A stretch of DNA of 63,780 nucleotides, filler included, from Folioceros fuciformis (lineage: Eukaryota): the NCBI GenBank assembly GCA_049999805.1. It is 17 parts of 17 records of this genome, joined end to end, with 100 filler letters (N's around TTAATTAATTAA, not from the genome) between each part and the next. Parts side by side here need not be neighbours in the genome. Positions count along the whole stretch, not along the records: positions 16,006 to 22,366 come from JBNGIO010000495.1; 16 more parts are not named here. One strand, given 5' to 3'. Made by a program: the position numbers and the translations under genes. Shown here one piece after another: positions 1 to 58,829 of the stretch; positions within the stretch are counted from its first letter, which is position 1, and each line of letters begins with the position of its first letter. The notes beneath the pieces were generated by a model. That model saw nothing but the letters and a program-made list of their open reading frames with translations. It was not told where the DNA came from and searched no databases.

Positions 1-541
1 GGGGCCTGGCACCCCACGCACGCGGCCGGGGCCTGGCACCCCGCATCCGCAGCCTGGCACCCTGCGCCCAGGGCCTAGCCGCGATCCGGCGCCCTCTTTG
101 ATACCTGTGTTGCTGCTACCGCAGCCTATGCTTGAGCATGGGGGGGCTGGAGCCTGTTGCACCCCAGGCAGCAGGTGGCCTCAAACGGCCATTGGGATTC
201 TGCCTTCACTACAGAGCCTCCTTATGGCTTGGTGCACCTCGTCCGCAGTACATGCCATCACCCTCTGCTCCATAAACCTGGCTCTGATACCACTTGAAGG
301 ATCGCTAGAGAAGCATGGTGAAGGAGAGGAGAGGAGGAAGCAAGGAGTAGAGGAGAAAGAGAGGTCACACTCTCACAAAAGGTCTCTATATGCAAGGGAG
401 CTCAAGGGGGTATTTATACCCTCTAGAAGAGCTCCCTAGGAAACTTCACAAGAAGCACATAGGAAGCTGCGCAAGAAGCTTCCTATTGCGCAGCTTCCTA
501 TAGATTAGCTTAAGCTAATCTAAACTAATGATACTTAACTA
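1..541 (-). mobile_element. Copia family A 5' end: truncated 5' LTR (295-541), tRNA-Met PBS (281-292) and GC-rich leader
   Basis: GCTCTGATACCA at 281-292 is the reverse complement of PBS TGGTATCAGAGC. 295-541 matches the complete LTR copies at 34253-34557 and 50997-51289; the leader matches 34560-34809. Confidence 0.9.
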
Positions 542-549
542 ATCAATAT

Positions 550-2420
550 TTGCTGAAACATACGAGTCCAAGGATGTTATGTCAGAAGTTGCTGCAAACT
601 ATGCATTTTCAAAATCTCCGTATGAAGGAGATTGTGGCCAAATTTCGGGCAACACGAGCCAAGTTGGCATCATGTGGTACTATCATCACTGAATCTAAAG
701 CAGCAATTCAATTGTTGGCATCTTTACCTCCTAGTCATGAACAATGGAGTATTAGCCAACAATCAGCAACAGTAATTACTCTAGGCACAGCCACACAACC
801 TACAACCTCCTCCCTTACAGTTCAGAAGCTGGTTGGTGCTCTCTTGCAAGCAAAGGCCAACAAGAAGATGATGAACAAGGGTGTTTCAAATCATGGTTCA
901 GGCAGCTCTCATAAACAGAGTGATACTACCCTCTACTGTGGACAGGGCAAAGGTAGAGACAGGGGTCGAGGACATGGAGCAGGCGGTGGACTTGGTCGTG
1001 GATACCAGTCCTACCAACAGTTCTCTAGGTGGGAAGAAGCCTGGAAAATGCAACAACTGCAACATTCCAGGACATTGGATAAAGGATTGCAGGAAAAGAA
1101 AAGCAGACGAAGCTGCTAAAGGAAAGCTTCCAGAAGGGGATGTAGCGAGAGCCTCCACACCGGGGTTGTTGGTTGCTTGCCTCAATTCTTTCAAGCGTGC
1201 ACCACATCATTGGTTTCTAGACAGTGGAGCGTCAAACCATATGTGTGCATAAAATAAGCAATTTGTGACATATCAAACTGTACCAACATGTCACAAATCA
1301 TCAGTATCATCATGAGACAATTCTTCGATCCCCATCAAAGGGTTTGGCACAGTAGAGGTGGCCTTATTTGGTGGAGGAATTTACAACTAGAGAATACCTT
1401 GCATGTACCTCAGTTGGCTAAAAACTTGGTCAGCGCGATGGCACTTGGCAAGACTAGCTTATACAGAATTACATTTGAAGGTATCACATGTGTGATATCC
1501 TTGACTCAGTCTCCTTCAACGATCATAGCAAGGGGCTTTCCTTTGTATGATCTGTACCTGCTGGATTTCCTTCCTCATGCTCCACAACCTGCAGCCCATG
1601 CAACTAGCAACAAGATGTCAGCTAGTAAGGCATTTACATGGCACTGTTGACTAGGCCATGTGAATATCCAGGCAATGAGGAGACTTCTCAAGGAAAAGGT
1701 GGTAACTGGATTTTCAAAGTCTGAGTTACCTGACTTGGATCTTTGCATGGCGTGTGCCCATGGCAAGCAGTTAAGTCCCATTTCGGCAGCGGTAGACCTT
1801 GAAAAGAGTCAGATACATTAGATCTGATTCATTCTGATATCTGTGGACCAATGTCGGTAACCTTCTAGGGAGGAGCTCGGTACTTTGTGGTGTTTGAAGA
1901 TGATGACACACATTTTACAGTCACAAAGCTCCTGCAACACAAGAGTGAAGTTTTCGACAGCTTTAAGAGATATTTTGCATATGTAGAGCGACAAAGAGGA
2001 AAATAGCTTAAGTGCATTCGCTATGACAATGTGAAGGAGTATCTATCTACTTCATTTCAGCAGTTCTGTCAGGACATAGGTATAACTAGGTAGGTCACTA
2101 TTCCTTATCATTCTGATATGAATGGAAGAGCATAGAGGAGACATCGCACCATTCAGGATGCTGCTCACTCTTTGCTATATCAAGGAAGACTGCTAGTTAG
2201 ATTTTGGGCAAAGGCTGGACACAACTTATCTGCAAAACCGAACGGCAGTGTCTTCGCTGCTTGGCGTGACTCCCTTTGAAGCCTGAGCTCGAGTCAAGCC
2301 CGACTTGAATCATCTTCGACTATTCGCTAGTATAGCATATGCTCATATTCCTAACAAATTGCGTACCAAGTTCTCATATAAGTCCAAGAGGCACATATTT
2401 ATTGGGTAGTAAGAAGAGGG
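550..2420 (+). pseudogene. Degenerate Ty1/Copia gag-protease-integrase
   Basis: QLLASLP gag motif, zinc knuckle CNNCNIPGHWIKDC, protease WFLDSGASNHMC, GAG-pre-integrase WHC*LGH, integrase DLIHSDICGPM; many stops and frameshifts. Confidence 0.92.
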
Positions 2421-2424
2421 ACAG

Positions 2425-3727
2425 AAGAAGTTTGCACACCTCATCTTCCATTCTGGGAACCTTGAAACTTGGAGGTTGCTGTATATAGATTTCTTCGACT
2501 AATTTGCCGTAAAGGAATGCAGTCATGACGTCCAAATGATGTATGTCCCAGTCTTACTTTGCCGCCACGGCAAATAATGTTTGCAAGCTGTTCATGCGAA
2601 CTACGGGGGAGAAGGTCTCCTTGTAGTCCAACCCTTTCACCTGAGTGAAACCGTGAGCCACTAATCTCGCCTTATGCCTTTCCAGAGATCCGCCAGCATT
2701 GTACTTTTTCTTGAAAGTCCACTTGCAGTCGACGGCTTTTCTCCTGGGTGGCAAGTCTACCACTGTCAAACATTGTTTTTGAGCATCGAATTATACTTAG
2801 TACGAATGGCTTCATTCTAGAACTCGCCTTTAGGTCCGTTTCGTGCTTCCTCAATTGTGGACGGAACATCATCTTCAAGGAGAGAACACCATTCTGGTCC
2901 GCTCACCATATTGAGCTGGGCATTCTCGAGGACCTTCCGCAAAGGCTGTCGGACCCTTGTCGACCGTCTTGGAATGGCTGTTCTTGGTTCGTCCACTGCG
3001 TCCTCCAATGCAAGGACTAAGTCTTCAACTTGCTGCTGCTGTTGTGCTCCTTCTGAGTTTCCTTCTTCGAGAATTCATGCAGGAGCAATAGGTGGTACGA
3101 CCTCACCTATTGGGATTTCCTCACCACCATCCTCCGGTGTGTGGTGATCCTCTTCTGCTGTCATTGGTGGATCTGGGACAAGGAAGGTGTCATGGATGAA
3201 CTCAGAGTCGAGGTCCGTGTAAACGGCCGTGCTCTCCATATGACTGCCATTGTTGTTCTCAGCGAACACGACATCGGAACTTTCATGTGTCTGCTTGCTG
3301 ACCGGATCCCACAATCTGTAAGCCTTTCGCTCATTTGCATGACCAATGAAGCTGCACTTGATGCTTCTATCATCCAACTTCTGCTGTAGTTGCTTGGGGA
3401 CATGCATGTATGCTACACAGCCAAACACTCTCAAGTGTGAGACGTTTGGTTTCTCACCAAACCAAGCTCCATGGGGTGTCAGAGCCACCTAGTGCCGTGG
3501 TAATTGACATATTCTGTACGTGTACCGCCGTTGCCAGTGCATCTGCCCAAAAATGTTTTGGCATCTTGCTTTCCGCTAGCATACTCCTAGCGCCATTGTT
3601 GATGGTGCGATTCTTCTGCTCGGCAATCCTTGCCTGTTGCGGCGTGTACCTTGTCGTCAACTGCCTCTCAATTCCGGCCGCTTTGCATTCATCCTCGTTA
3701 TAAGTTTAAGAGCCTTGTTATAGTGCT
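2425..3727 (-). pseudogene. Degenerate Ty1/Copia integrase to RT N-terminal fragment, converging on the previous element
   Basis: YTPQQARIAEQKNRTI, FWADALATA, HLRVFGCVAY, KLDDRS, YRLWDP; RT CKWTFKKK...KARLVAHGFTQVKGLDYKETFSPVV. Confidence 0.92.
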
Positions 3728-3827
3728 NNNNNNNNNNNNNNNNNNNNNNNNNNNNNNNNNNNNNNNNNNNNTTAATTAATTAANNNNNNNNNNNNNNNNN
3801 NNNNNNNNNNNNNNNNNNNNNNNNNNN
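3728..3827. other. Artificial contig-joining linker (first of 16)
   Basis: 44 N + TTAATTAATTAA (stops in all six frames) + 44 N. Identical linkers start at 3728, 6503, 9724, 12550, 14437, 15906, 22367, 26952, 28257, 31100, 34810, 45635, 49398, 54746, 59243 and 62606. Confidence 0.98.
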
Positions 3828-4587
3828 AGAGAGATGAGGGTTAGGGTACAAGAAGGGGGGCCTGCCAGTGAGAAGGGGGCGGTCTATGGTGTGAGGTCCC
3901 CGGATTTTGTGGGTAGAACTCCTGGCTTAGGGCGCTGAGCCGGTTGAGGTCGACCCAAAGTCCTTATTCCCTTGCCACTAGGGGAACGTGGGGATCCCGG
4001 GGCTGTCAAGATCCGTGTGGCCGGATCCGCAAGGGCTACATGATTCGCAGGTTGGCTGAAGTGAAGGAACAGGACCGTGAGCTGAAGGGCTATCCAGTCC
4101 TAGATCCACACTATGCTTGAAGGCTACAAGGAGTGAAGCCATTGTGCCTAATTTCCAGGGAGGAAAGCTGAAGAAAAGAGAGGAAGAGTTGGAGTGGGAT
4201 GCATAGAAGTGAAGAGTGAGCTGCTGAATAGTAGGAGTGTGTGTTGAAGTGGAGGGTGGGGACTGAAGTGAAGAGGAAGGGACTGAAGTGGGAATCTTGA
4301 AGCGCTGAGGTCAAGGAGAAAGTGGCTGAAGTGGGAAACAAGAAGGGCTGGAGGGCTGAAGAACAAGAGTGTGAGTTGGGTGAGCTGACTTAGGGGGTAG
4401 GCTAGGCTTCTAGCCCTTTTGTTTGAGTGTATGGACAGACCTATAGACCGGCTGATAGGTAGAAGTGCGATAGGTAGCGTTCCTTGGCACTAGTTCACTC
4501 CCTTGGGAGCGAACCATAGGACTACAACGACAATAGGGGAATGTGTGGCCCCTTCGGTGGTTCTTGGGTGCAAGAAATCACTCCACA
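3828..4587 (+). mobile_element. LTR terminal segment ending CAAGAAATCACTCCACA (probable U5 end of the Gypsy LTR)
   Basis: The same terminus recurs inverted at 13989 and 33256, each time interrupting unrelated coding sequence exactly at TG/CA; contains degenerate GCTGAAGTG repeats. Confidence 0.75.
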
Positions 4588-4847
4588 CTTGGGTTGCGAA
4601 AGGTACTGCAAGAAGAGGAGACAGCAGTCGAGGGAAACCAACGTGCAGGTGATTAGGTTAGCGTCGAGCTTCATCCACCTGACCTGTGTTTCAGAATGTT
4701 GCTTCTAGATTGTTCAAACTGTTGTTTTGTTGTGGTGGCTAAGCCTCCCTGTCGCCTAACGACAGGCACATAGGAACATAGAAGGAAGAGCTATACTCCA
4801 CAATACTGAGGACTCGGGCCTCACCCGTAAGTCTTGTTTGCAGTATG

Positions 4848-6231
4848 TTAAGCTGCAGGTTTGAAATAGGGCTGAAAGTTCATCAACCCAAGTGCTTGCA
4901 TGTGCTTCTGGTGCTTATCCTTTGGTAGGGCCTTTGTTAGGATGTCTGTTGTGTTATTCTCAGTAGGCACATAGAGAATTTTAACTAATCCCCTCGCAAC
5001 AGCATCTCTAACATAGTGGTGATGGACTTCAATATGTTTTGTTCGAGCGTGGAATCGGGGGTTGGCAACAAGGGCGATGGTGGATTGATTGTCACGATAG
5101 GGGTGAGTCGGGCCATCCTGTGTCTGCCCAAGGTCGTGTAAGAAAGACCGCTCCCATTCCACTTCCTTAGTAGCATCTGTAAGGGATTTGTACTCAGCTT
5201 CACTGCTTGACAGGGCGATACTGGTTTGCTTCTTGCACCTCCAGTTGATGGAAGGCTGGGCGAGGAGAAAAGCATAAGTGGATAAACTCTTACGGGAGTC
5301 ACTATTCGAGGCCCAATCAGCGTTAGTATATCCTTCAAGAGTGAGCCGAGTGGTCTGGTGTGCTCCTCGTCGATAGTAGAGTCCAATATAAGGCGAGCCT
5401 TTGAGGTAACGTAGAAAACGTTTCACGGCAATCTAGTGAGCACTACTAGGGTTATCCAAGAACTGGGACACTATACTAACTGAATGTTGGATGTCACGGG
5501 GCGTCCAATTGCTGACAAAAAGCAACCAGCCAACGGCTTGGCGATAGGGAACATCCTGCATGTCCAAGCGATGAGCATATGTGACAGGACACTCATATCT
5601 GGTAAGCTTAGCTCCTACAGAGCCTGGAGTAGAAGAGGGATGAAATTGTCCCATGTTAAATTTGTGTAATATCTCTGCAACGTATTTGTGTTGATGGATA
5701 ATGAGAAGCCCCTCAGATCTAACTCGAAGTACTTGTATCCCCAAGTAGAAAAGTAGATCGCCACTATCTGTCATTTCAAACGTCTTCCTTAACATATCCT
5801 TTACGTGTGACAGGATATTTGGATTACTGGCCGCAAGGATCACATCATCCACATAGAGAGCTAGAATGACATAGGTGGTGCCGTCTTGGAAGATGTACAC
5901 ATTAGAGTCAGCTTTGCACTATTCAAAACCCAAGGTTTTCAGGGCTGTGTCACATCTCTTATACCAGTGCTCTGCACTCTGCTTTAATCCATATAGGGAC
6001 TTGATGAGTAAGCAAACGTGGTCTGGATGTGCAGGATCAACATACCCTTCCGACTGCTCCATGTACAGCTCCTCCTCAAGAATACCATGGAGGAAAGCTG
6101 TGCAGACATCCATTTGCTGCAACTCCAGGTCGTACTCGGCAACGAGGGCTAGGATACTGCGGACGGATTGAGCAAACACCACTGGAGAAAAAGTCTCTTG
6201 GTAATCTAAACCAGCAATTTGGGTAAACCCC
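4848..6231 (-). pseudogene. Degenerate Ty1/Copia RT-RNase H
   Basis: GFTQIAGLDYQETFSP, QMDVCTAFLHG, KSLYGLKQS, LYVDD, YTNADWA, SSSEAEY, DNQS, RTKHIEV, DILTKAL. Cut at 6231 by an LTR insertion. Confidence 0.93.
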
Positions 6232-6475
6232 TGTGAACCTCCAAAGTTTGGGGTAGTAGTTTGTTTTGGTTGAAAAAGGGTTAATAGTGGTATGGTTTGG
6301 TTTTCTTTTTCTACTTATTTTCCCTAATTTTTCTTGATTTTCTGGTCATTTTTCTTATTTTTCTTTGTGCTAATTAGGTAAATTGACCAGGAAATAGTTG
6401 GTTTGGTTATAAGAGTGGGTATAGGTTTGGTCCCAGACCTGGGAAAGTTTAGGTCCGGTACCGGGCCATAGGGTT
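6232..6475 (+). mobile_element. Gypsy LTR-B 5' terminus (TGTGAACCTCCAAAG...)
   Basis: Closely similar copies at 26111 (+), 58830 (+), 23360 (-), 27306 (-) and 45807 (-); starts with TG and interrupts a Copia RT reading frame. Confidence 0.85.
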
Positions 6476-6502
6476 ATTAAAGCCCAATGTGCTTAGACTA
6501 AT
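6469..6502 (+). mobile_element. Copia family A LTR 5' fragment
   Basis: TAGGGTTATTAAAGCCCAATGTGCTTAGACTAAT matches the LTR start at 34253. Confidence 0.8.
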
Positions 6503-13988: not shown

Positions 13989-14436
13989 TGTGGAGTGATT
14001 TCTTGCACACCCAAGAACCACCAAGGGGCCACACTTCCCCTTATTATCATTGCAGTCTTATGATTCGCTCCCAAGGGAGTGAACTAATGTCAAGGTTACC
14101 TACATCCTTCTAATCTCACCCTATCTATCAGCATATACCAAGTGCTACAGCAATAGATCCACCCCTGCTAACCGATCAACCCAGCCACCTGCCTGGCTCC
14201 AACTGCGACAAGCCGCTTGTCCAGCCTCCAACAGGCTAACTACTGCGGCCACGATTCAGCCAGGCCACCGTCTGGCCACTATTCAGCCAGTCGGCCTGGC
14301 TGACTGGATCCAACTGCCAGCCCCTTGCCTGGCCTGCCACCCACCTCAATCCAACATGTTCGCCAGCTCGCTGCATTCCAGCCCGCCTGGTCAGCTGGTC
14401 TGGATCCTGCCGCCTGCTGGGATGCGCGGCCTGGAT
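13989..14436 (-). mobile_element. LTR terminus (reverse complement of ...CACTCCACA) running directly into the GC-rich CCAGCC low-complexity domain
   Basis: Matches the 4587 and 33256 termini; the CCAG/GGCC-rich tract from ~14170 resembles 34910-36546. Confidence 0.8.
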
Positions 14437-16149: not shown

Positions 16150-17435
16150 TGCTCTGAATGACCCTGCCATGGAACCCTCAACCCCGGACATCCCTAACCC
16201 TCGGCAGGGCAGAATGGCTAAACACAAGGGAGTACCTTGAGGCTAGACAAGTCCCACAGAGCCCTGGGAGCCTTGCGAAGGTAGAGTTCCTACACAAGGT
16301 GGAGCTATATGGGTTGCACCCCAGAATCCTATATTGGTGGTGTCTAGATGGAGAAGTCCATAGGTGTCTAAAGAAGGAGGATGCTGCTAGGGTCATAGGG
16401 GCCCTACACTCAAAAGAGGCTAGGGGCAGGATTTTGTTGGCCTACATTGAACCAAGATGTCAACAAGTATATCCAATAGTGTGACATGTGCCAGCGAATA
16501 GGGAAGCCAATCGTGGCAACACGAAGGATGCTGCACTATGTACTACCCCTCACACCTTTCAAAAAATGGGGGATCAACTTTATCAGTCCCATTCGCCCTC
16601 CCACTCAACACACTCACAAGCAATACATCCTGCTAGTGATGGACTATTGCACTAAGATGGTCGAAGTCAAGGCAAACCCTAGGGACGACGCGTCTATTGT
16701 AGTAAAATTTCTTTATGAGAAGATCATTATGCGCTATGGGTGCCCGTTGGAGTTGGTGAGTGATAAAGGGACACATTTCCTAAATGAGGTAGTGGAGGTG
16801 GTCACCCTGCACTTCAACATCCGCCATCGCAAGACGACTCCCTACAATCCCAAAACCAACAGACTACTCTATAAGATCCCCGTGAAAGTCACCGTATCGC
16901 ACGTTCGGGATTGGGACACCGAATTGCACTCTACTCTCTAGGCGTATTGAATGACCGAGAAGGTAATGACTAAACGCTCTCCGTTCCATCTAACCTACAG
17001 AACCACTTCTATACTCCCCAGAGTTTGAAGTCCCCACTTATCGTATCACCAACCCTGAACGGCTCTCTCTTGAGAAGAGTCAGGAGGCTCATGTTAGCTC
17101 CTTTGTTCAACATGAAGAGCAAGGGGAAAATGCACTAGAGGAAACCTAGCAGCAACAAGAAAAATGGAAGGTCCTCCATGATCGGATGCTCCAATAGCAG
17201 GATCCGTTGAGGGAAGGGTTTAGGGTTTAGGGTCCTAATGTATGACAATCGACATATGGACTTTCCAGGGAAACTACACTTCTGGTGGATGGGGCCCTAC
17301 CGAGTAACCACAACATTTAGCAATAGGTCGGTACAACTGAAAACCTTAGCTGTGGATCGCTTGCCTACGAGGGTGAATGGGTAGAAGGTGAAGAAGTATT
17401 CCTACCCGGATGTTTGCAAAGACCCAAAACTTTGA
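16150..17435 (+). pseudogene. Ty3/Gypsy (Athila/Tat-like, non-chromovirus) integrase, degenerate
   Basis: CQRIG, PFKKWGINFISPI, YILLVMDYCTK, RYGCPLELVSDKGTHF, TTPYNPKTN; C-terminal FPGKLHFWWMGPY...RVNG*KVKKY. No chromodomain is seen before the PPT. Confidence 0.92.
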
Positions 17436-17446
17436 GAAGGGGAGAA
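17434..17446 (+). other. Polypurine tract
   Basis: GAGAAGGGGAGAA directly after the integrase end and 2 nt before TGTGAACCCCTCCAA. Confidence 0.8.
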
Positions 17447-17781
17447 TATGTGAACCCCTCCAATAATCAAAGCAACGCTTTGATGGGAGACGGAGCTTCA
17501 TTTCCCCTCGAACTTTGGTCCGAGAACAGTTTTTTTTGCTGTGATTTCTGATTTAAATAACTTTTGGCCTTTCTTGGACTTCACGGCATGCTGAGTACGG
17601 TGGTCTAAGGCGAAGTAGTTGGTGGGCAGACTGACACATCCAAGCTGGTGTCGTACTTGTTCTCATGCGTGATTGCGGGTGTAACCGACTCTGGGTGGTT
17701 GTAGCATAAGTTCTTACTTCAGGTAAGAGTGGCGCTTACACCCCACGCCTTGCCTCCTCCCCCTCCCTCCTCACTTCCTTC

Positions 17782-19710
17782 ATGACGCCATTTAGATGCT
17801 TCTTCCCCTCTCCACAGCTCAATGAGGATCACATCCACACTAGGGCATACCCCAATTTCACTCCCTAGATCACGGCGGCAGGAGATTTGATGGAATAGTG
17901 GGAGATAGGATTGTTCCAGTTCCCTTGGAACGTCCAGTCTCCTACCATGGTTCGAGAATTTGCCTGGAGCCTGTGACGCTAGGCACAAGGAAAGCGGCAG
18001 TCTTCCAAATTTAGGAGTAATCCTCTCCTCCAAACGATCTAGATGGTCCGGGAAGTATATGAGCGACTGGCCTCGAAGCGGGCAAGACTCTACCTCAACT
18101 CCCAACGGAGCAAGGCGTTGGTGAAGGAGGCTGCCAAGGCCCTACTCAAGCTTGGACCCAGTAAGAGCACTCATGGCTCGCTCATCCACGGCTTCAAGGA
18201 CTTGCGCATCAGAGGGGTGGCTTGGTTAATCGTCAATTGGCTTCTGGTCAACAAGGTAGACTAGGTCGAGGATGGAGTCCTCATGCTGCTCTATGGACTA
18301 GTATAGGGGTCCCCATTGGATTGGGGCAAGGTGGTAGCCCATCAGATTCAGTTCGATGTTAGGAGGTTGCGGTTGGAGAAACCCCCACCTTTGGGTTGAC
18401 TCCTTTCTTGTTACATATATGGGGGCACCATAAAGTCCTGACGGACTTGGAGATGCGTCTTGCTCCCCTCCCCCCGACTACAACTTTGGTTTGAGCACTT
18501 AAGAAGAAACTCTTGGCGCATGTGACCCAACCAATCGCTTTGGCCTCGACCCCTATCCCACTACCCATCTCAAACATTATCGATGACAAGGGTGCCATCT
18601 CAGACAACATCAATTACATTGGGGTTTAGGTTTTAGGGTTTAGACCGGGGGTGTTGTTGCCGATGGCTTAAGTCTCGGTGCTCATTTCAACTAACAGTCC
18701 TCCTCCGACCAAGAAACCAAAGACACGTTGGGTTTGAGAGAATGAGAAGCCGACCTTTAAATGATAGAACACTCAGGTACCGGCATAGGTAGGAAAACAG
18801 GTACCCCTTTGGAGCGCTCCCCACCAACTAGTCTAGAGCCCAAAGACCTATGGGTACCTGGACCTCAAGTGGCCGCAAGTTCCAGGGAGGAGGCAGACCA
18901 CATGGAGCTAGTCCGACTCATAGCTAAATTGGACTACAATGAGAGGCACAGAATTGAACCTTTTGGAGTAAAGCGGCCCTCGTCTCCTCGGAGACAAAAG
19001 AAGGAAAGAGGCCCCTGGTCTCTTAGCCCACCTCTAGCAAGCACTATACTCTACCACCACCTGCTCCAAGGCTGAGCAAAGAAAAGTCAGCCAAGAGGAG
19101 AGGCCTTCCCTGCTCCATTGTCCAGGGAGACCTCATTGAAGGAGGTATCACTAACCCAGAGGCCATGAGGAGGGCCATCTAGACCTCCTTTCAAAAGGCG
19201 AAACTATCGCCCAACTATAGGTTAACTTCGGAACCACCTCAGAAGGAGAGGCAAGCAGCCCAAGAGATTGTGGCTTCGGACGCCAAAGGCTTGGCCTAGT
19301 CCTTCACACATGTTGCTACTCGGGAAGGGGAAAACATCACTCTTCGAAGGCAAATGACAAAATTGGCAGCTCAATTAACTGCCATTAAGGACAGGGTCGC
19401 CTGGATGACCTCAAAGCTCCGTGAGGAGGCTATGGGAGGAGCGGAATGGAGCATAAAGGAGCTGTCAAACCTCAACACCCGGAGCATGGAGCAAATGGAA
19501 GGCCTATCTGGGCAGCTTAAGGCGGTGCAATTCGAGCGGGACTAATTGCGGGAGACTTAGAGGATTGCTATGGAGGCTGCACATGCCGAAGAACGTATGG
19601 TTTGGTTTAAGCGAGAGGCAGATCACATGAGAGCTCCAAACAACACACCATCGACCAAGATCGCTACTATGGAGTCCACATGATGAAGAGAACCCCTGGA
19701 AAATGGTAGT
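17782..19710 (+). pseudogene. ORF-X: Gypsy accessory protein (ATHILA/Transposase_32-like N-terminal domain + low-complexity linker + coiled coil), divergent copy
   Basis: Read through stops: YPNF...AGDLM...PWNVQSPTMVREFA...MVREVYE...LDWGKVV...LTPFLLHIW. Colinear with the 56607 copy (WPNM...AGGLV...RWNHAAPQLVRECA...DWGKIL...ISPFLIHIY). Coiled-coil-like segment at 19354-19545. Confidence 0.7.
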
Positions 19711-19899
19711 GTTTGTTTTTTTTTTTTGGGTTTTTTTTTTGAATTTCGTAGGGAAATGATTAGGAGATTAGACTAGAGTAGAGATTAGATTAGTGGTTAG
19801 TGAATAGGGTCCAAGTAGGAAGTGTGGTAGGTAAGTCTAGGTTCCTCTGGTTAGGGTGTTTAATGTGTGTGTGGAACCCTAGATCTGTGAGTAGGAGGA

Positions 19900-22366
19900 G
19901 AGTGGGTTCCATGGAGCGGGCAGGCAGTACATGAGGATGGCTAGCCGGAACACGATGGAATGAGAAGTAGCAGGCAAGTCCGGGCACTTTGAGTTGACTC
20001 GGGCATGTCGGCTGGCCAGATCGGGGCTAGTAGGAGGGCATCTAGGCCCCTGGCAAGCGTTAGTTAGGACGGGAGGCTGCCTGGTCAGCAGGCTCCAGGA
20101 GGCTTGGCAAGATCTGGCAGGTGGCTGGGCTAGGCAGTTGGCAGCGGCTGTTGAGGGGTAGGTCGCCTGGCAGGTGGTCCAATCAGGTACTAGCCGGATC
20201 GCCAGACAACCCAGCCTGGCCAGCATCAGGAGCAAGGCGGCTGGGGAAGCCGGGTAGTGATTGGCTGCTGGAAGACGGGACTGGATCCGAGGGCTAGCAG
20301 GCGGGATGGTAGCACAGGCAAGCCAGGGGCAGCGCCGAATCCTAGTGGGCTGAGGCTGGCCGACCTTGGAGCCAACCAGCCAGGAAGGTTGGCGACTCGG
20401 CACCCAAGCAAGTTGGCGAGCTGGCCGGATTCGAACCGGTAGTGCAGGCAACCCAAGGGCGACACTGGATGCGTCACCAGGCAGGCCTCAAGCTTATCCT
20501 AGCCAGGCTGGCTACGGCTGGTCGAGGCTAGTTTGCAGGCGGTTGAGCAGGAGGCGGCCAGGCAAATAGCCCAAGGGCTGGTAGGGATCGTGGAAGCGGA
20601 TCTTGCCAGTGGCCGGGAAGGCAGGTGGCCCGTCGGGGTGGCAGACCGCACAGGCGGCCTGGCTTGTCGGTGGGCAGGTTTGTTGCAGGAGGAGGAAAGA
20701 TGGGCTGGCAGATCCAGCCGGCCAGGAGGCGAGATCGACAGAGAGGCCTAGGTGGATCAGTGGGGCGGCCTAGCGATGGATCCAAACTGGTAGACTAGGT
20801 AGGCGGATTCGGCCGGGCAGCCAGGCAGCCGCCTGGCAGAGGGGAGTGTAGGCGATCTGGGGGGTGGTCGGGCCAACAGCGGCCTAGCTGCTAGGGCTGG
20901 CCGAGGTGGATCTAGGTCGACTAGCTGGGCCCTGGCCAGTTGGCAGACTAGGCTGCTCGGATCCAGGCGGGCGGGTAGATCAGGCTGCGTGAGCCGGGGT
21001 GGATCTAAGCGAGTCCGACCCAATTGCAGGCAGCCTGCAGGCAGGCGCTTGGCCGGATGGCCAGGCAGCCAGGCTGCCACCTAATGGCTAGCGGCTGGGG
21101 GGAATTGGCCTGGCAGGGGCTAGCCAGCAGAGGCCGGCTGCTAAGTAGCAACCAGGCGACCCAGCAGCCGGCGGGCTGGCCGGGCAGAGGCAGGTGGCTT
21201 GGCTGGGTAACCTGGCTGGTCTAGGCTGGGTCCTGGCTAGTCGGTGGGCTGGCTGCAGAAGCAGACCAGCAAGGTGCAGGCAAGCAGCCGCTGCAAGCGG
21301 CAGCCCCGACCAACGAGTGAATCCAGCGGGTAGCCAAGCCGAGCAGGCTGGCTGCCGGGTTGGATCTGGAGGCTAGAGGTTGGGTAGCGGCCTCTGGCTA
21401 GTCGGCCAAGTTGTAGGCAAGGAAAGCGGGCTGGATCGCAGACAGGGGCAGGGCGCTCCGGCGGGTTGTGGTAGTGCCAAAGCCATGCAGCCAAGCGGCT
21501 GGCAAGTTGGCATCCAGGCGGGAGGGTGCCGGATCAGATTGGTAGCGATAGTGGGCCTAGCTGGCTAGCCGATCTTGTAGTAGGTAGGCCAGCTGGCTTG
21601 GGGGTGGATCTGTGCCAGGCTGGGGCCTGGAGGAGGGCCGGGCCTGTAGCGGCCCGTCTACGGAGAGCAGGGGTTGCAGAGGAGCGCTTGCAGGGGCTGG
21701 GCCAGCAGCACGGACACTTGGCTACGGGCAGGCAGCCTCGCCTGGCTGTAGGCAGGCAACCCGGCAGCAGGTGCGTGGGTGACCTAGCAGGCACGACGTC
21801 CGGATCCAGGCAGCCATGGCTGGTTGACCAGGACCGTGAGGGGGCTAGCTAGGGGCTGCAGCAATCGGCCTTGCGGGCGGGCTGCCTAGCCAGATACAGG
21901 AGAGCAGGCAGGCGCCCCAGCGGCGCGGACAGCCTGCGGCCGGATTCAGGCAGATATTGGCTGAATCGCTAGACAGCCCAGCCCGGCCAGCAGCAGGAGT
22001 GGGCCGGCCTAGCTGCAGCTAGAGTGGCCAGGCTAGACAGCCTGAGGCGGTGCTAGATCGAAGCCAGACGGGCCTTGGGCTGATCCAGGCTGTGCTGGCC
22101 AGCAAGAGAGGCTCAGGCCGGCGGCAGGTTGGCAAGGAGGCTGGCTGTCGGGGCGGCTAGTTGTCGGGGTGGCTGGCTGCAGCTACTGGGGAGCTACTAG
22201 CTTGTGGCGGGCTGCTGAAGGGCCTAGCCGGCAGGTTGGATCCAGTAGGCCGACTGGCTAGGTGGATTCCGGGAGGCGACGTGGCTGACTGGTGGACGGG
22301 TTGATGCGAATCCGGGCAACGGCCTGACCAGATCTCAGGCAGGCGGCCGGGCTGGTCGGATGGTAG
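19900..22366 (+). repeat. GC-rich low-complexity domain (GGCTGG/GCCAG/GGATC/CTAG motifs) of the Gypsy family
   Basis: Blocks are homologous, inverted, to 35650-35900, 44680-44780 and 45050-45350. Confidence 0.8.
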
Positions 22367-34909: not shown

Positions 34910-36546
34910 CTACAGTCACACCCATCATGAGTCTTTGAGCACCAATCACCTGGCCGCCGAACTGGTCCAACCCCGAATTAGGCGCCTCACTACTGGCCAT
35001 CAACTCCACCTACTATCCTGCCACGATCCTGCCTGCCTAGATTCGATTCGATTGCACCAGCCTGATGTGCGACTACCTCTCCTCTTGGATCTAGTCACCC
35101 CCCGCCTTCATTCACCTGCTAGCTCGGCTGCTTCGGCCATGATTCAGCCAGCCCGCCGCCAGCCTGCTTGGCCTGCTTCAGACTCCGCTGCCCCGACAGG
35201 GCTACTTGCCTGGGTTTGCCTGCCAGCCTATACACCAATTAGCCAGGTCGCCTCCCCGGATCCACCTAGCCAGTCGGCCTGCTGGATCCAGCCCGCAGCC
35301 TGCCTAGGTCTGCTCCACCTCATCCGCAACCGGCTAATGGCGGCGCCTACCTGCAGCCTAGATCCCAGCCAGCTCTATGGTCGCCATCAGCCGCTAATCT
35401 GGTCACGACTGGGCCGCCCCCGCTTGCCTCCTGCCTGCCTCAGTCCCGTCCAGGCAGCCAGCTTGCTGGCCTGCCTGCTACTTGCTTGCAACAGGACCAG
35501 GCTGCCTGCCCGGCGGCTTGCCCGGAGCCAGCTGCCCGTCTGGCTGGCTGGGTCCGCCCCCGCCCTGCTGCTGCTTGGCCGCGGCCTAGCCATCCTACAA
35601 CGTCCCGATCTGCCTCTGTAGTTGGCTAGCGGCCGCCTGGCCTGAACCTCATTTGCCAGCCAGCACTGCAAGCACGACCCGGATCAGCCCGAGACCTGCT
35701 TGGCTTGGATCCAACGTCGCCCTTGGCTTGCCTGCACTACCAGTCCGAGCCTGGCCAGCCACCAGCCCCAGCCGGCTGCCCGGCCTTCGAATCCAACCCT
35801 GTCCAGCCTGCTGGGTCCTCCAGCCACTGGCCCTACCTGATCTATTGGTCGCCACCGGCTCTTAGGTCACTAGGCTGCTGCCCACAATCGGCCTTTGCAA
35901 GCCAGCCGCTGTCTGGCCGATCAGCCAGGCCGCCTACCTGGCACTAGCCGCCAGGGGGCTGCCTAACTGCTTGCTGGCGAGCTGGGTCTGTCTGCCGCCA
36001 TTCCACCAGCCAGCCCAGCTAGCCCGATCAGCCGGCCTCCCAAATCAGCCAGCCGGCCTCCAGGCTGGCTACTCCTCTGTGCTCCAGGCTGCCTGGCTCC
36101 AGCCGTGAGCAACCACAGCCAGCCCTATCCACGCCGCCAGGACTCGGCCCTGATCCACTCTCGTCAGCCCAGCTAGACGTTCAACTAGGCTTCTCGGATC
36201 CGCCATCAGCCCGCCTGCTTATCGACCAGCCAGGCCGTCTGCTCGGTCTCTGCTAATCCTTGGCTATCTGCCTCGCCGCCTCCCCGCTCAGCCGCCTGTA
36301 CATTGGCCTCGATCAGCCGCAGCCAACCCGGCTAGGATCAGCCCGAGGCCTGCCTGGCTTGGGTGTGCATGTGCTGCCAGCCTTCCTGCTAATCTCCGGA
36401 TCTAGTCCTATCTACCAGCAGGCCGGGCGGCGGCCTGGCTTCGGGATCCGCCCCCAAGCACCCTGCCGAATCACCTGCCATACAGGCTATCGGACTGCCC
36501 GCATGCAGCCTGATCGGTTGGCTGGCCGCTGATGGCCGGCTCAGCC
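34910..36546 (-). repeat. Gypsy GC-rich low-complexity domain (left flank of the nested Copia)
   Basis: C-rich strand equivalent of 19900-22366; continues at 43011 across the CAGCC TSD. Confidence 0.8.
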
Positions 36547-36821
36547 TGTTAGAAGTATAGTTTAAAATACTTAGGGCAACTCGTATTATGTTAAGTGGGG
36601 GATAATAACTGTTATTACCGTCCCTGTCATCTAACCTATATAATGCGCAAGGCGCACACTAAAATGTAACTGCTATTCGTATCCCTGCTTTCGTGTGCGC
36701 TGCATCTTTGTGCATAGAGTGATCGTTGTGATCATGTGCAATCCATAACACACATGGTAACAGAGCCATTGTTGTGATTCACATTGGATATGGTGTGGGC
36801 CGAGGTTGAGCACAAGATCTA

Positions 36822-37493
36822 ATGGATCTACCGCAATTCTTGGATCAAGAATTCGCGCTGCTGATTGCGCGGGCGATTGAAGCTATGCTGATGCGAGAAG
36901 AGGCTTTGGAATCTGCAGGTCTTTGAGTGGACTGGACGTCTCAGGATGTGGAGAGCAGCGAGAGTGCTGCTACTGTTGATGCATACCTGATGATCATGGA
37001 GCAATCGCGTTGTTGGTGGTTTGCTAAGCAACGTAAAGGGAGGAGGTTTGCACGCTCTGATCTGTGCGAATCCAGGGGACCAGAGCACTACCATCCCCGT
37101 GACCCCCCAGAGCACAAGTCTCAGTATAGCGATTTTTTCCCTTTGTCGCCTCAATCCATCAATCAGCATTGTTTCCATGCTCAACCTGTAGGCAGTCAGT
37201 ATCACCTGAATCGTCAGTGTCCTCACAAGAGTACCTTGCAGTTTCAGCATAGAGCCCTAAGGAAAGCCCAACAAGTGTCTAATTTGGCTTTATTGCATCA
37301 GGAGGTTCAGGTCCTTACCAAACTGGTCTTAGGTCAGGAAACAGCCTTGATCAGTAGATCCCGTCATGTCTTTGCGACTTTAGTCACAATAAGATCACAG
37401 TTAGAGTTCCTTTGTAAAAAAAAAAAACTTACACACAAAGATGCTCTCAATCACGATGTAATAGACTGCGCATGCCAATGCCAAGTCAACTGA
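36822..37493 (+). pseudogene. ORF0: extra ORF upstream of gag in the Copia element, function unknown
   Basis: ATG at 36822 (MDLPQFLDQEFALLIARAIEAMLMREEALESAGL*VDW...); 224 codons with one internal TGA at 36924; helical C-terminal segment. Confidence 0.5.
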
Positions 37494-37685
37494 ACCAGTG
37501 TCATCTGAACATGTTCCTCTCATTGGCATTTGTAATTGCTATCTACAGTGTCTTGAATATGTCTCCTGTCCAGTAGTTGCACCCACTTCTGCTGCAAGTC
37601 AGAACACCTTTTTGAATATGCACTTGAGTACCAAGTCCTTGTGAGTATAAGGGACTTGTTCCAAGATGGTGCTTATCAGTCCGAG

Positions 37686-40600: not shown

Positions 40601-42324
40601 AGAAGCTAATGTGCATTCAAGTGGTGAGGAAGACACGCCTATGCTTTCGTCCCTACTGACAACTGTACAACAAGGTCACCTTGATAATGACCTTACTATA
40701 GCTCAGGTACTAGCAGTAGCTGCAGCTAGTGTGAACTCAGGTGATCCTGGCAACTATGCAAGAGGCATATAGTGGTCCAGCTGGTAAGAGTTGGACGAAG
40801 GCTGTTGAGGACGAATATGCGTCCTTGATAAAAAACGGAACTTGGACTCTGCAGGAGCTGCCAAAGAATAGAAGGGCAATCAGCAATAAATGGGTATTTA
40901 AGACTAAATATAATGCAGATGGGAGTATAGAACGATTAAAGGCAAGGCTTGTAGTGAGGGGATTTTCACAACGTGCAGGAGAGGATTACTTCGAGACCTT
41001 CGCACCTGTGGTAAAATTTCCTACCCTCAGGCTTGTCTTAGCAGTGGCAGCTCATGAAGACCTAGATCTTGAGCAGTTGGACATCCGTACAGCTTTCTTG
41101 AATGGAACCCTAGATGAGGAAATCTACATGCAGCAGCCTGAAGGGTATGTTAAAAGGGGAAGCGAACATCTGGTGTGCAAGTTGAACAAAACACTCTACG
41201 GGCTCAAGCAGAGCCCACGAGCATGGCACAACATACTGGATACCTTTTTGCTGAAGTGTGGATTCAACAGGGCCACAGCATATTGCAATTTGTACGTGCT
41301 AAGAAGGAAGTCCATGTACCTGCTGGTATTGGTGTATGTAGATGACTTGATACTAGCAGCAACACCAGGTCCGGCTAGTTTGTTGATTACAGTCAAAAAC
41401 CTGCTGAAGGCGGAGTTTGAAATGACGGATAAAGGTCCACTCAAGTGGTGCTTGGGAGTTGAGGTGATCAGAAACCGACCAAAAAGGTCTATCAAACTGT
41501 CACAGAAAAAGTATGTAAATGACATTCTTAGTAGGTTTAATTTGATGGATGCCCATGGTAGCAACACTCCATTGTCAACGGGCGTGAAGCTGACAAAAGA
41601 GCAAGCAGCTGCATCACCAGCAAAAATCCAGGAAATGAAAAAGGTCCCCTACAAAGAAGCAGTATGTACGTTAATATACCTAACATGCTTGACAAGGGCG
41701 GATATTGCATTTCCAGTGCATCTCGTCTCTCAGTTCCTGTCAAGCCATGGCAAGGATCACTGGATTCAGGTCAAGCGGATAATGAGGGACCTGAAGTATA
41801 CAGCAGATTACTGCATCACTTACCAGGCTGAGGACAGTAGAAGACTAGAGCTTGTGGGTTTCTGTGATAGTGACTGGGCAGCAGACCCGATAGCAGGAAG
41901 TCGATTGCAGCATACGTATTCATACTGGCTGGTGGACCTATCTCTTGGTCCTGCAAGAAAAACCCTAAACATATGTTTATCAAGTACTGAAGCAGAATAC
42001 AAGACGCTTACCGTGGCTGCGAAGGAAGCCATCTGGGATCGACGATGCTTGGGTGACATAGGACAGAACCAGATAGAACCTACAAAGCTACACTGTGACA
42101 ATCAAGGGGCGATTGCTCTTGCCAGCAATCCGGTCTTCCACTCACGAACGAAACACAAAGAGGTGCACCATCATTTTATTAGGGATGTAGTCGCAAGAGG
42201 CAAGTTACGGTTGGCCTACATCAGCACCTCTGAGAACCCTGCTGATATCCTAACTAAGGCATTGTCCTCAAAGCAACATCATAAGCACTGCAGGCATCTA
42301 GGAATGGTGCCTACAGAACTATAG
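37686..42324 (+). pseudogene. Copia gag-pol polyprotein (gag, PR, IN, RT, RH) with stops and frameshifts
   Basis: GANYDVWVMRM, CNWCGLPNHWERD, WYVDSRATSHIC, LWHMRLGHP, LVHADLCGP, CL*TDNGGEF, KARLVVRGF, YVDDL, FCDSDWA, SSTEAEY, ADILTKAL. Confidence 0.96.
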
Positions 42325-45807: not shown

Positions 45808-46781
45808 TAGAGGCACACGAGAAGCTAACCGAGGCTGAGGCAAGTCGGCAGCAATTGGAGGAAATACGACAAACCCTGAGTGCAGCCAAGGAGCAAGCAA
45901 AGGAAGAAGCCTGCCGAGCCCGAGAGGAAATGCAGACGCTGAAGGAGCAGCAGGATTTGCTCCTGGCTCAAGTTAGAGAGGCCCATGGGACCAACTAGGA
46001 AATGTAGCAGGAATTGCTAAGGGCCCAAGAACAGGAGGTGGCTACAGTGAAGAAAGTGCAAAAGCTGGCAGACAGGTATAAGCGGGAGCGGGACGAAGCT
46101 CGGAACCAGGTGAAAGGAAAAGGCAAGACTATGCGAAGTAGCCAAATTGCGACAGAGGTAGCTGAAGAGGCTACCGGTCGAAGAGAGACCATGCCGGTAG
46201 AGGAAAGCCTGACCAAGGTAGAGGAGGCAGCAACCGTCGAGGAAACCGCAACCACCAAAGCTGGAATGGCAACTTGCACCCGGAGGACGGAACAGGGCGG
46301 AGCAGCAGCTTGGGGAATGGAGGATCTTCCAGTGCCATTGGAAAGCAAAAGGCAAGCAGTTCAGGATAGCCCACGAGAGGAGGGGGTAAGCACCTCATCC
46401 ACAACAGAAGATCAGATTGTATTGCAATATCTGGATGAGGCCACTTATGTTCCTGGTCTTTATGTCGATGGAGACCGTGTGCTAAACTTAACTGTCCATG
46501 TGCGTGTGGAACTAGGAGGGACAAGGGTCTACTGCCTGCAAATGAGGACTTGCACGGGGTCCCTCTTCCATTGTTGTCGAGTGTGGGGATTGCCTCCTTA
46601 CTATTCAGAGGTAGTCCTGGAAGAATTGATGAAGGAGGAGGCAAAGGCGTGGGTTGAGCGAGAGCCTGTGATGATTCTCAGCAACAGACGACGGGAGGAG
46701 AGAAAGAGTCCCCCTCGACGGGGCCCACCTATGCCGCCACTGGAAAGGTCAAGTAGCAGCAGCGAGGTAGAAATCCTCTAG
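45808..46781 (+). pseudogene. ORF-X C-terminal half (coiled coil + unknown C-terminal domain)
   Basis: AKEQAKEEACRAREEMQ...QKLADRYKRERDEAR..VKGKGK aligns to 57923-58300; downstream YLDEATYVPG aligns to 58800-58829. Confidence 0.7.
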
Positions 46782-54845: not shown

Positions 54846-55992
54846 CGGGTACCATATTTTAACCCCACACTACACCATAGCTGAGGTTAGTCCCGGCAAA
54901 TCCACCTCCTGTGACTCCACAGGGGCCATTCCCCTCTTGGTTATCTGCCTCCCCAGCAGCGCTTGCAATCTCTCCAGCTCCCTTGCCTGCAACCTGTCCA
55001 CTTGAGGAATTGTTTTAAAAACATCTTCCCATCCTGGGAAGACTTCATGTTCCGGATCGTGACCTAATTCGCTCATGACCTCAGGAGGGGCCACTTCCAT
55101 TTCTGGCACCTGCTCCTGAGGTGCTTCTGGCTCCTCCTCGTTCTATTCCTCCTCCGCTGGCTCCTGGTCTGCTGGCTCCTGGTCTATTGGCTCCTGGTCT
55201 ACTAGCTCCTGGTCTGCTGGCGCCTGGTCTGCTACCCCCTAGTCTGCTTGTTCCGGGGCTGCCTCCTGTGGCGCTGACCCGCTTCCTCTCCTGGTGATTT
55301 GCTCACTGGCCCGTATCGTCTTGGCAGGAGTCTTCTTCCCTGCCCCCGCCTTCCTCTTCTGCCTGGTGGGGGTCTCCTCCTTCGAGCTGTCCGCACCGCC
55401 TGACTCCCAGCTGTTGGAGTCGGCTCCCACTGGCTTGGTGGGCTTCCACTTCACATCCCTTGTTAGCCTCCACATATGCAGCGAGGCGAGTACCTCCATT
55501 TCAAACACAAGGTTAGCATAGCAGTAAATATGGATAAGGAAGGGGGAGATCATCAAAGGCTGAGGAGAGGGCAGGGTCAGATTCTGCCTCTCCTCATCCA
55601 TCCTGGCGTACAGGATTTTCCCCCAATCTACCTTGCTCCCTTTGACAACCTTGTACACGAACAGGAGCATCTGGTCAGACAAATAATCCTGCTTGCGAAC
55701 CTGGAGGAAGCTAAGGAACCATCTGGCCAAGCCCATCGGCTGGGGGTTGGCCACACCACAGATCAGCCATCCATTGGCTTCCTTTTTGGTGCCCAGCTTG
55801 AACAGCACCTCGGCGTCCGCTGTACTGTTGCGCTTCTTCAAGGACTCCAGCACAAGTCCTCCCTCCTCCTGCTGGTCGCGGCCATACACCCGGCTCACCA
55901 GCTCTAGGTTCTAGTCTTGGGGCTTGCCATGGACTCCCTCCTCTCGGACGAGCTCTCTCAACTTCAAAGCGCACTCCATGACCAATTGCGGC
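54846..55992 (-). pseudogene. ORF-X copy, 5' end cut by an LTR insertion
   Basis: PQLVMECALK...VYGRDQQEEGG...DWGKILYARMDEERQ...ISPFLIHIY...IPQVDRLQA; contains 15-bp (ADQEP-type) repeats at ~55155-55240. Confidence 0.75.
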
Positions 55993-56230
55993 TGTAGAGG
56001 AAAAAACCTTTCAGGACTCCCAGTTTGAGGAACAAAATGAACAAGTTGTGTTTTTTTTTTGTAAAGATGAGAATGGCTCGGCTTAGTATGGAAATAAAAC
56101 TTGGGTATTTATACCCAAAGGGCTCCTTGGCCTTGGTGATATGATAGGATGGAGTGACAAGACCAAGGGGAAGTGTGGGCGAGGGCGTTCTTGGCCCTTG
56201 GTAGTGTGGGGGCACCCAAGTGTTTATATA
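55993..56230 (-). mobile_element. LTR fragment of another family
   Basis: Starts TGTAGAGG exactly where ORF-X homology stops; minus-strand TATAAATA at 56105-56112. Confidence 0.6.
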
Positions 56231-56606
56231 TGTACCCCCCCCCTAGAAAATAAGAAGCAGGAAATGGGGTAGGGGCTTAGGTAGTTAGGGACTTGGGCGA
56301 AAAACCGGAGTGCGATGACTAGGGGACGATAGTTGATTGGGCGACCATCGGGAAAGGGAAACCGACAGTAGCCCAACCGGCAGTAGTGGAACGGGAATGG
56401 CAGCACGAAACCCTAGGGGGAAGCAGGGGAGGGCCTGGGCAGTAATCGAGGCAGAAACTTTCGCGAATTGGAACGGGAGCGGGAGTTGCCGTGAAGCACG
56501 ACGACGACGGTAGGGAAGTGGAAGCTTGGGCAGTATAGTAGAGCGGGTGGAGAGCGCTGGCGACCACAGGCGCAGGAGGGTAGAAAGGTTTGGATTACGA
56601 AGGAGG

Positions 56607-58829
56607 ATGAGGTCGCGGCTAGAGTTGCTACCAGGAGTATCGGTACCTGAGCAGGAAGAGGGAGAGTTCCCTGTACCGAGGATGGATGTGCTCCTTTGGC
56701 CCAACATGGAACACTTGAGGCTCAGAGCCGGAGGACTGGTCGGAGAATTAGGCCTCGAGTTCATGCCCCAGAGGTGGAATCATGCGGCGCCGCAGCTGGT
56801 GAGGGAGTGCGCCCTGAAAATGAGAGCCCGCCCGGGAAGAGGGAATACGCGGCAGACCTCAGGCGTGGAAATTAGAGCTGGTAAGGCAAGTGTATGGCCG
56901 TGACCAGCAGGAGGAGGGAGGACTAATGCTGGAGTCTTTAAAGAAACGAGGTGGCATGGCGGAGGCCGAAGGGCTACTCAAACCAGGCACCGAGAAGGAA
57001 GCCAACGAGTGGCTGGTCCGCGATATGGCCAACCCGCAGCTGATGGGTCTGGCCAGGTGGTTCCTATGTTTTCTGCAAGTCCGCAAGCAAGATTATTTGT
57101 CCGACCAGATGCTCCTGTTTGTGCACGAGGTGGTAAAAGGGAGCAAGCGGACTGGGGGAAAATCCTGTACGCCAGGATGGATGAAGAAAGGCAAAATCTA
57201 ACCCTATCTTCTTCCCGACCTTCAATGATTTCTCCCTTTCTAATTCATATCTATTGCTATGCTAATCTCGTGTCTGAGCTGGAGGTCCTCGCCCCACTGC
57301 ACATGTGGAGACCAATAAGAGATGTAAAGTGGAAGCCCGCCGAACCAGCAAGAGCCGACTCCAGCAGCTTGGAGGCAGGAGATGCGGACAGTTCGGAGGA
57401 GGAGACCCCGCCAGGCAGAAGAGAAAGGCAGGGTCAGGGAAAAAGGCTCCCGCCAAGAGGAGACAGGCCAGTGGTCAGGTAGTCAGAAAAGGAAGTGGGT
57501 TGGTGTCACAGGAGGTAGGCTTGGAACGAGCTGAGGAGGAGCAGGAAGCTATTCAAGAAACAACAGACCAAGGGTCGGCAGAGCAGGAACTGAACGAAGG
57601 GGAACGAGAGGCACCTCAGGAGCATATGCCAATGATGGAAGTGACCCCTCCTGAGGGAAGAAGGGAATTAGGGCACGATCCGGAGTGGGAAGCCTTTCCA
57701 GAATGGGAGGATGTTTTTAGGAAGATCCCTCAGGTGGATAGGTTGCAGGCGGAGGAGCTGGAGAAGATACGAGCGCTGATGGGGAGGCAGATAACCAAGA
57801 GGGGAATGGCCCCTGTGGAGTCGTAGGAGGTGGATCTGCCAGGACTAACCTCAGCTATGGTGCGGGTCCAAGCGGACGTGTTGGACCAGGTGGCTAGGGC
57901 ATTGACCTGGACAAGCAGGTAGGTGGAGAAGGAGGCCGAGGCCCAAAGTGGAGAGGCAGGGGCAAGAGGAAAGGAATCCGAAGCCTGGAGATGGCTGGCG
58001 GAGTCTGAAACGGCACGACGGCTTCTGGAAGAAGAGCGGCGGGTCTTGAGTGAGGGCAAGGCACAAGCAAAGGAAGAGGCGCGCCAGGCTAGGGCAAAGA
58101 TCCAGGCGCTAATGGAGCAACAGGAGTCGCTCCTAGCTCAGGTGAGGGTAGCCCATGAAACTAATTTGGAAATACAGCAGGAGTTGGCTGAGGCTTAGGA
58201 GCAGGAGATGGCTCCGATGAAACAAGCCCAGAAGTTGGCGGACAAGTACAAACGGGAGCGGAACGAGGCTAGGGAGCTAGTAAAAGGGAAGGGCAAGGCC
58301 GGGCACTATGGCCGGACAACGATGCCGGTAGCGGGAGGGGCTACTGATAGTCCAGTTTCAGAACCGGTAGCCGAAGGGGCTACCAGTAATCCAGTTTTGG
58401 ATCCGGTAGTTGGAGGGGCTACCGGTAGTCGCGTGTCAGAACCGGTAGCCCCTTCGGCTACCGGTAGTCGCGTGTCAAAACCGGTAGCCGGCGGGGCTAC
58501 TGATACTCTCGTGCCGCCTGAGGTAGTTGAAGGGGTTACCGGAAGGGGTGGTGCGACCCCGGTAGCCGAAGTCACGACCCCGGTAGCCGGAACAGCAAGA
58601 GCAAGAGCAAGGGCGCCTATGCCTAGGCGTTCTAGGAGGGCGACTCGCACCAGGCGGGTAGAGCCGGAGGAAGCAGTAGCAGCCGGGGGAATGGAGGACT
58701 CTCAGGTACCCCAAGAGAGCGGGGTCAGGCAGCCCGAAGTAGCCCAAGGGAGGAAGGGGTAAGCACCTCCCTTATGACAGAGGGTTAGGTTATGCTGTAG
58801 TATGAGGAGGAGACTTCTTATGTGCCAGG
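56607..58829 (+). pseudogene. ORF-X, most complete copy (ATHILA/Transposase_32-like domain, acidic linker, coiled coil, 13-aa repeats)
   Basis: Consecutive frameshifted ORFs 56526-56903, 56890-57201, 57009-57482, 57305-57826, 57923-58198 and 58208-58762 are colinear with the other three copies; ~375 bp downstream of a TG-starting junction at 56231. Confidence 0.75.
58325..58519 (+). repeat. In-frame 39-bp tandem repeat x5 (PVAxGATxSxVSE)
   Basis: CCGGTAG...GGCTAC units every 39 nt. Confidence 0.9.

Follow-up and report, generated by a model that had tools for sequence, protein, structure and literature searches.

The locus at 17449 in Folioceros fuciformis raises the question of whether a Gypsy retrotransposon can carry a protein-coding gene inside its own long terminal repeat (LTR). 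The window, meaning the whole 63,780-nucleotide stretch of DNA analyzed, consists of 19 contigs joined by N-spacers, and the locus (16218..22366, family A) lies within one 6361-bp contig (G000:C495) of an assembly of 87 Mb and 7240 contigs, whose repeat content is heavily nested. On the plus strand, the degraded 3' end of a Gypsy pol, recognized as integrase by tblastn with a relative's polyprotein and by Pfam rve, occupies 16218..17435 and ends in a TGA at 17433-17435. A polypurine tract (PPT; 17434..17446, +), read in the sequence itself, follows at once, with a TG at 17449 and the ATG of an open reading frame, ORF-X, at 17782. These positions agree with a preliminary description of the locus, which further proposed a single LTR of >4.9 kb running from TG through ORF-X and a GC-rich domain to a U5 ending in CACTCCACA. 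The core idea of that description, that ORF-X lies inside an LTR, holds, but the proposed anatomy does not.

We searched the assembly with positions 17900-19900, and most matches began at about 19670. Twenty-six other loci (among L038-L067) align from a terminus at 19668, and the flanks of the 25 that have flank sequence all differ. Two ORF-X siblings (L104 and L105) follow the window sequence as far as about 19667, beyond which they remain ORF-X coding. The repeat that starts at 19668, LTR-C, itself begins directly after integrase and PPT in four contigs (C1146, C5306, C6432, and C5566), and the end that goes with this start is CACTCCACA. It also forms solo LTRs flanked by target site duplications (TSDs), one of 1317 bp (TSD GTCCC) and a long one of 4178 bp (62% GC, 100 N, TSD GGTAT), in neither of which did the ORF-X profile find a match. 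By terminus alignment across loci, 19668..22366 (+) is thus a nested LTR-C of the GC-rich long form, an independent insertion outside LTR-A. GC-rich DNA does adjoin CACTCCACA at 13989..14436 (-), as described previously; it is an LTR-C 3' end, not part of LTR-A, since an end of this type is matched by TGTGGAC/GTCCAC starts and is followed by the primer-binding site (PBS). Because the GC-rich block is an LTR-C inserted into ORF-X, the >4.9-kb anatomy falls; the adjacency of its pieces in the window had spoken for it, but LTR-C has its own TG start, unrelated flanks elsewhere, and solos lacking ORF-X, and we give a single LTR of that kind practically no credence. The ORF-X-bearing LTRs described below measure 3.9-4.8 kb.

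The sequence after the TG distinguished four families, A to D, and two minor types among 22 integrase-end loci (one mis-picked row was left out of the comparison), and at these loci, in every sister family, PPT and TG lie directly 3' of the integrase stop. Family B starts with TGTGAACCTCCAAAG, family C with TGTGGAC/GTCCAC, and family D with TGTAGAGG or TGTGAACG, while family A comprises the window locus and C867. In an integrase tree, family A was supported by 98/100, B and C formed separate groups, and D was an unstarred group; the tree, one row of which is a mis-picked site, cannot separate loss of ORF-X from repeated gain. The six TGTGAACCTCCAA termini reported in the window are present and belong to LTR-B. 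Their resemblance to the start at 17449 stands at the family level only, as no alignment extends past 8-9 nt between starts. A solo LTR-B of 1370 bp (TSD CTTAC) is likewise without ORF-X. Families B and C occur at high copy number without the gene, which is also missing from a D-type LTR of roughly 1.04 kb in C6095; ORF-X is therefore dispensable in cis.

Family D provided complete units. We took 19 ORF-X matches on longer contigs, 6 of which had both termini within 10 kb; C2838 was a seventh, and in the remaining 13 stretches one or both ends were absent from the stretch. Five of the seven two-ended units are flanked by perfect 5-bp TSDs (GGGGC, CGTAC, AGGAG, ATTGG, and ACCTA), one by a TSD with one mismatch (GTCGT/GTCAT), and one by a TSD with two (GACTG/GGTTG). 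Their termini are TG...CA, with one start being TA, and their lengths range from 3855 to 4768 bp, the three N-free units measuring 4658, 4686, and 4665 bp. No internal PBS, PPT-TG junction, or terminal repeat was found inside these units. On the upstream side, the order integrase-PPT-TG-ORF-X was seen in four contigs (C2723, C6139, C5977, and C5894), in one of which, C5977, the LTR runs to its CA end and carries a 5-kb insertion. On the downstream side, a D-type end precedes the PBS TTTTGGCGCCGTTGC at 8 of the 9 sites with an exact match; of 20 additional PBS sites examined, 6 showed it as well. C4991 carries ORF-X, LTR end, PBS, and gag in one uninterrupted run. This PBS matches a host tRNA-Asp (7 loci fit by pattern, of which 1 was checked). 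In C5995, with the PBS at 47-69, an ORF at 124-6438, and the LTR at 6488, the polyprotein takes up almost all of the internal region.

Since these units start after integrase and PPT, end before PBS and gag, and occur as TSD-flanked solos, they are LTRs, and in family D ORF-X almost certainly lies within the LTR and is kept in solo LTRs, as had been proposed. The internal region of family D reads PBS(tRNA-Asp)-gag-pol-PPT, and its LTR reads TG, a leader of about 0.35-0.65 kb with a TATA-like box, ORF-X, a second TATA-like motif, about 1.4 kb, and CA. Nested insertions are very common in this assembly, which might favor viewing the 4.7-kb unit as a mobile element in its own right, inserted by chance beside PPTs and PBSs; however, the unit itself lacks terminal repeats and ends exactly at PPT and PBS at many loci, making such a coincidence very improbable. 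None of the stretches fetched (12, then 16, then C4966), all nested or truncated and drawn from a fragmented, nested assembly, contained an element whose two LTRs both carry ORF-X and share a TSD. The ORF-X search returned at least 555 candidates (150 scored), compared with at least 290 integrase matches over all families, and 7 of 148 ORF-X contigs were shared with the 99 contigs of best integrase matches compared.

The window itself holds several pieces of family D. An LTR-D occupies 55993..58829 (+), with its TG terminus at 55993 (TGTAGAGG), a TATATA at 56225, and the broken ORF-X copy from 56607 that had been reported; an LTR-B insertion cuts it at 58830. The junction previously placed at 56231 is not the start of this repeat, lying just past the conserved TATATA. 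A third ORF-X piece (54870..55992, -) is situated between two LTR-D insertions, one with its end at 54846-54869 and the other starting at 55993, and a further family D ORF-X copy is represented by its C-terminal portion at 45808..46781 (+), cut by an LTR-B at 45807.

Family A consists of old, interrupted copies with 65-73% DNA identity. At the window locus, the surviving 5' part of a 3' LTR spans 17449..19667 (+), and its ORF-X (17782..19667, +), recognized by amino acid likeness to that of family D (about 27-32% identity), is broken and is truncated by the nested LTR-C. Ten stops in eight matched segments and several frame changes were counted in this copy. Two of 11 A-group TG starts follow integrase and PPT (the window and C867). 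The flanks of the other 9 are unrelated and lack both a PPT and a same-strand integrase; ORF-X follows in 8 of them. The exact window-type start without a PPT or pol recurs in L002 and L003. Neither a CA end nor a TSD or PBS was found for family A: a TSD scan of seven loci gave unrelated chance matches only, and a search with the A 3' region gave six matches, none of them traced to an end. The case for family A thus rests on the pattern of its starts and on homology to family D, from which we consider it very likely that ORF-X lies in the LTR here as well. Alternatively, for this family only, 17449 could mark an internal PPT, with ORF-X being an ordinary 3' accessory ORF ahead of a downstream LTR. 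The missing A-family 3' end and TSD leave space for this arrangement, and in the text available, Athila4 and Calypso are described as having an extra PPT upstream, in the linker (PMC2829016). Nevertheless, the PPT-less starts leading into ORF-X and the homologous gene within the LTR of family D argue against it, and we judge it improbable. The placement of ORF-X in the family A LTR is backed indirectly by the TG starts.

With regard to expression signals, TATATA occurs at +230 to +297 in seven of nine D copies, as at 56225 in the window, and the ATG falls at +359 to +669 in eight of nine. ORF-X comprises 837-843 codons in six D solos. About 130 bp 3' of ORF-X, the motif GTGTA(T/C)AAGAGG gave 17 matches in 16 of 23 sequences, 8 of the 17 including TATAAG, and TATA-like words occur at a comparable position in family A copies. 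Judged by its sequence, this motif is a candidate element promoter, and on that basis ORF-X would probably belong to U3 rather than to R/U5. Identity between D subfamilies is mostly 57-84% in the ORF and only 22-46% from +3500 to +4500. Counts of 8-mers in two D LTRs revealed no clear repeated target motif. An RNA run under the same species label gave six short partial contig matches, <90% alike, which provide no expression evidence.

ORF-X encodes an N-domain of ~240 amino acids, a basic and acidic linker, a region of ~150 amino acids made up of 70-82% EQARKL residues, whose composition suggests a coiled coil, and a small C-domain. Measured on stop-free stretches, which biases the figures downward, dN/dS of the N-domain was 0.04-0.19 between subfamilies (27 of 28 pairs, 1 being saturated) and 0.13-0.36 within subfamilies (8 pairs), compared with 0.15-0.57 for the middle region (10 pairs) and 0.23-0.58 for the C-domain (6 pairs). 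In family A, pN was 0.15-0.34 versus a pS of 0.69-0.93 (10 pairs). ORF-X is under purifying selection. Being in sense with pol and downstream in the genomic RNA, as env-like ORFs are, it might be suspected of encoding an env-like membrane protein; yet no transmembrane-grade segment was present in four pieces covering the N, middle, and C regions (maximum KD19, 1.25), and this identity is very hard to sustain.

Pfam gave no match to ORF-X, and neither a PDB sequence search with ORF-X nor a single-sequence homolog search among longer proteins yielded any. A profile search recovered 16 homologs (E, 5e-8 to 4e-4); among the 10 looked up were 5 named liverwort proteins (Riccia and Marchantia), and P0001 is labeled a plant mobile domain (PMD) protein in UniRef. 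Of the 16, P0010 alone matched Transposase_32, weakly (E, 0.005). The two proteins annotated with Transposase_32 escaped detection by profiles A1 and A2. A model of the N-domain built with the homologs reached a pLDDT of 78 (38 for the first model). Against 48,161 PDB chains, its top match was VANC21 bound to DNA (9lnk_A; root mean square deviation, 3.9; 187 of 222 residues aligned; 12% identity) at a Z of 6.5, a value lower than the best Z of 7-8 that unmatched models typically obtain with this tool, and thus within the background range. It was the sole row above Z 5, the next having a Z of 3.7 over 81 aligned residues. Foldseek against the PDB and viral libraries found nothing at an E of <=0.001, and a second structure comparison gave a Z of 2.9 at best. 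In the Atlas, ORF-X was placed near a DUF1985 cluster (0.90, with a weak recognition score) and P0001 near ATHILA and Transposase_32 clusters (TM, 0.48-0.63), predicted neighbors that seem to point the same way as the VANC21 match. Fold likeness by itself shows no function.

Available portions of the literature report that VANC21 binds motifs located in the element that encodes it and strips methylation (PMC12844716), that coiled-coil pentamers have been modeled for VANC as well as for the Athila domain (PMC13547354), and that the DUF1985 of VANC resembles PMD-C (bioRxiv 10.1101/2024.09.27.615353). Given the modeled fold, an anti-silencing role for ORF-X stands at about even odds. ORF-X might instead, while lying in the LTR, serve another nuclear or particle role, such as RNA export, integration targeting, or transcriptional activation. 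A regulatory role has been proposed for Athila/Retand accessory ORFs in the accessible text of two reports (PMC7264820 and PMC11963269), and the VANC21 fold match is modest; on the other hand, the sole solved-structure match above Z 5 is a DNA-bound anti-silencing factor, and PMD relatives act on chromatin according to the excerpts available. We regard such a role as less likely than not.

Compared with known systems, these elements share with the Athila clade (OTA non-chromovirus Ty3/gypsy; ATHILA PF03078 and Transposase_32 PF20167) the gag-AP-RT-RH-INT order without a chromodomain, the absence of a chromodomain and of an extra RNase H being read from a Pfam scan of the 2105-amino-acid polyprotein of sister family B. 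A tRNA-Asp PBS is an Athila trait, and it is shared here together with the 5-bp TSD and with a sense accessory ORF downstream of pol whose predicted fold lies near the ATHILA/Transposase_32 families. In contrast to Athila, the accessory ORF is situated within the LTR, beyond the PPT; the polyprotein fills almost the entire internal region; and the Athila combination of an extra ORF and a long noncoding stretch separating pol from the 3' LTR is absent. The best named RT-RH matches were 42-51% identical and environmental ones 57-64%, figures that are identities only. MMTV sag and HIV nef are U3-encoded retroviral genes; like ORF-X, they have coding sequence inside the LTR, which is hence duplicated, but no sequence or fold relation to them was found, and ORF-X is far larger (about 2.5 kb). 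VANC21 of VANDAL21 (PDB 9LNK) appears to resemble ORF-X in predicted fold over 187 residues, in having a coiled-coil region (putative in ORF-X), and in being a transposon-encoded accessory protein, but besides the low identity, its host is a MuDR DNA transposon rather than a Gypsy LTR retrotransposon. Phygy and Selgy, as characterized in the accessible part of Neumann 2019 (PMC6317226), also have a short internal region spanned by the polyprotein; however, they are short elements, whereas LTRs here reach 4.8 kb and are protein coding, and Phygy prefers NCGN targets, unlike the varied 5-bp TSDs found here.

Taken together, we favor, with a probability of roughly 55%, the reading that ORF-X is an accessory gene located in U3, probably with an anti-silencing function, that is present twice in each element and persists in solo LTRs. 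In retroelements, DNA lying 3' of the PPT is reproduced in both LTRs, and recombination between the two leaves a single copy. In this scheme, the non-chromovirus Gypsy families A and D would carry the accessory gene in the LTR, plus-strand synthesis primed at the PPT beside the integrase stop would copy ORF-X into both LTRs, and ORF-X would remain in solo LTRs with its own promoter. The N-terminal VANC/PMD/Athila-ORF-like domain would bind DNA, the putative coiled-coil region would oligomerize, and the protein may act as a nuclear, family-specific anti-silencing factor, as VANC21 does. The arrangement could have originated when U3 incorporated an Athila-type 3' accessory ORF as priming shifted to an upstream PPT.

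We conclude that this is a real, new variant of Gypsy architecture whose proposed function is plausible. An element reduced to a solo LTR is regarded as disarmed. In the present case, the LTR carries a conserved gene of 2.5 kb that is more numerous than integrase matches, so that solo LTRs stay coding. In the text accessible to us, plant additional ORFs are placed in the internal region (PMC7264820), and no report of a plant LTR-encoded ORF was found in the literature searched, in which subscription papers are few and which included available parts of PMC11963269, PMC5418596, and bioRxiv 2024.04.02.587720 and 2024.09.27.615353. Since ORF-X has homologs in liverworts, the design may be old. The VANC21 fold link offers a testable function for Athila/Tat-type extra ORFs. 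It is conceivable, though on balance unlikely, that a VANC-like gene moved into U3, that hundreds of solo LTRs act as own-promoter genes keeping the family, and perhaps also the ORF-less families B and C, unsilenced after gag-pol deletion, and that Athila-type "env-like" ORFs are VANC/PMD-fold chromatin factors throughout. LTRs of this kind would be overlooked or misannotated as host genes.

LTR-C, from a sister Gypsy family of those that carry the accessory-protein ORF-X, exists in two forms, 1.3 kb versus 4.2 kb; the longer form owes its extra length to GC-rich degenerate repeats and contains no ORF-X. The loci representing these forms are L100 (G000:C6095), L078 (G000:C5939), and window positions 19668-22366, 34910-36546, and 43011-45634. 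GC-rich LTR-C DNA also hosts a nested, nearly complete Copia element (window 36547-43010), the 208-bp LTRs of which are 95% identical. In addition, a D-type 3' LTR of ~1.04 kb (G000:C6095, about 81370-82410) retains both termini and lacks ORF-X; it is a deletion derivative.

At locus L160 (G000:C5306), the order integrase-PPT-LTR-C-PBS identifies a tandem pair of elements with one common LTR. At L078, a 1,317-bp solo LTR-C with a TSD on both flanks is nested within a D LTR, upstream of which lies a second D LTR piece.

Since the window contigs were artificially joined and are separated by N-TTAATTAATTAA-N spacers, neighborhood across the spacers is meaningless. A fragment resembling a protein kinase, with a GTEVYMAPE motif (49498-49941, minus strand), is probably a piece of a host gene.

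The ORF-X of these Gypsy families is a recurrent insertion site for one another's LTRs (window 19668, 45807, 55993, and 58830), which may reflect targeting of LTR chromatin.
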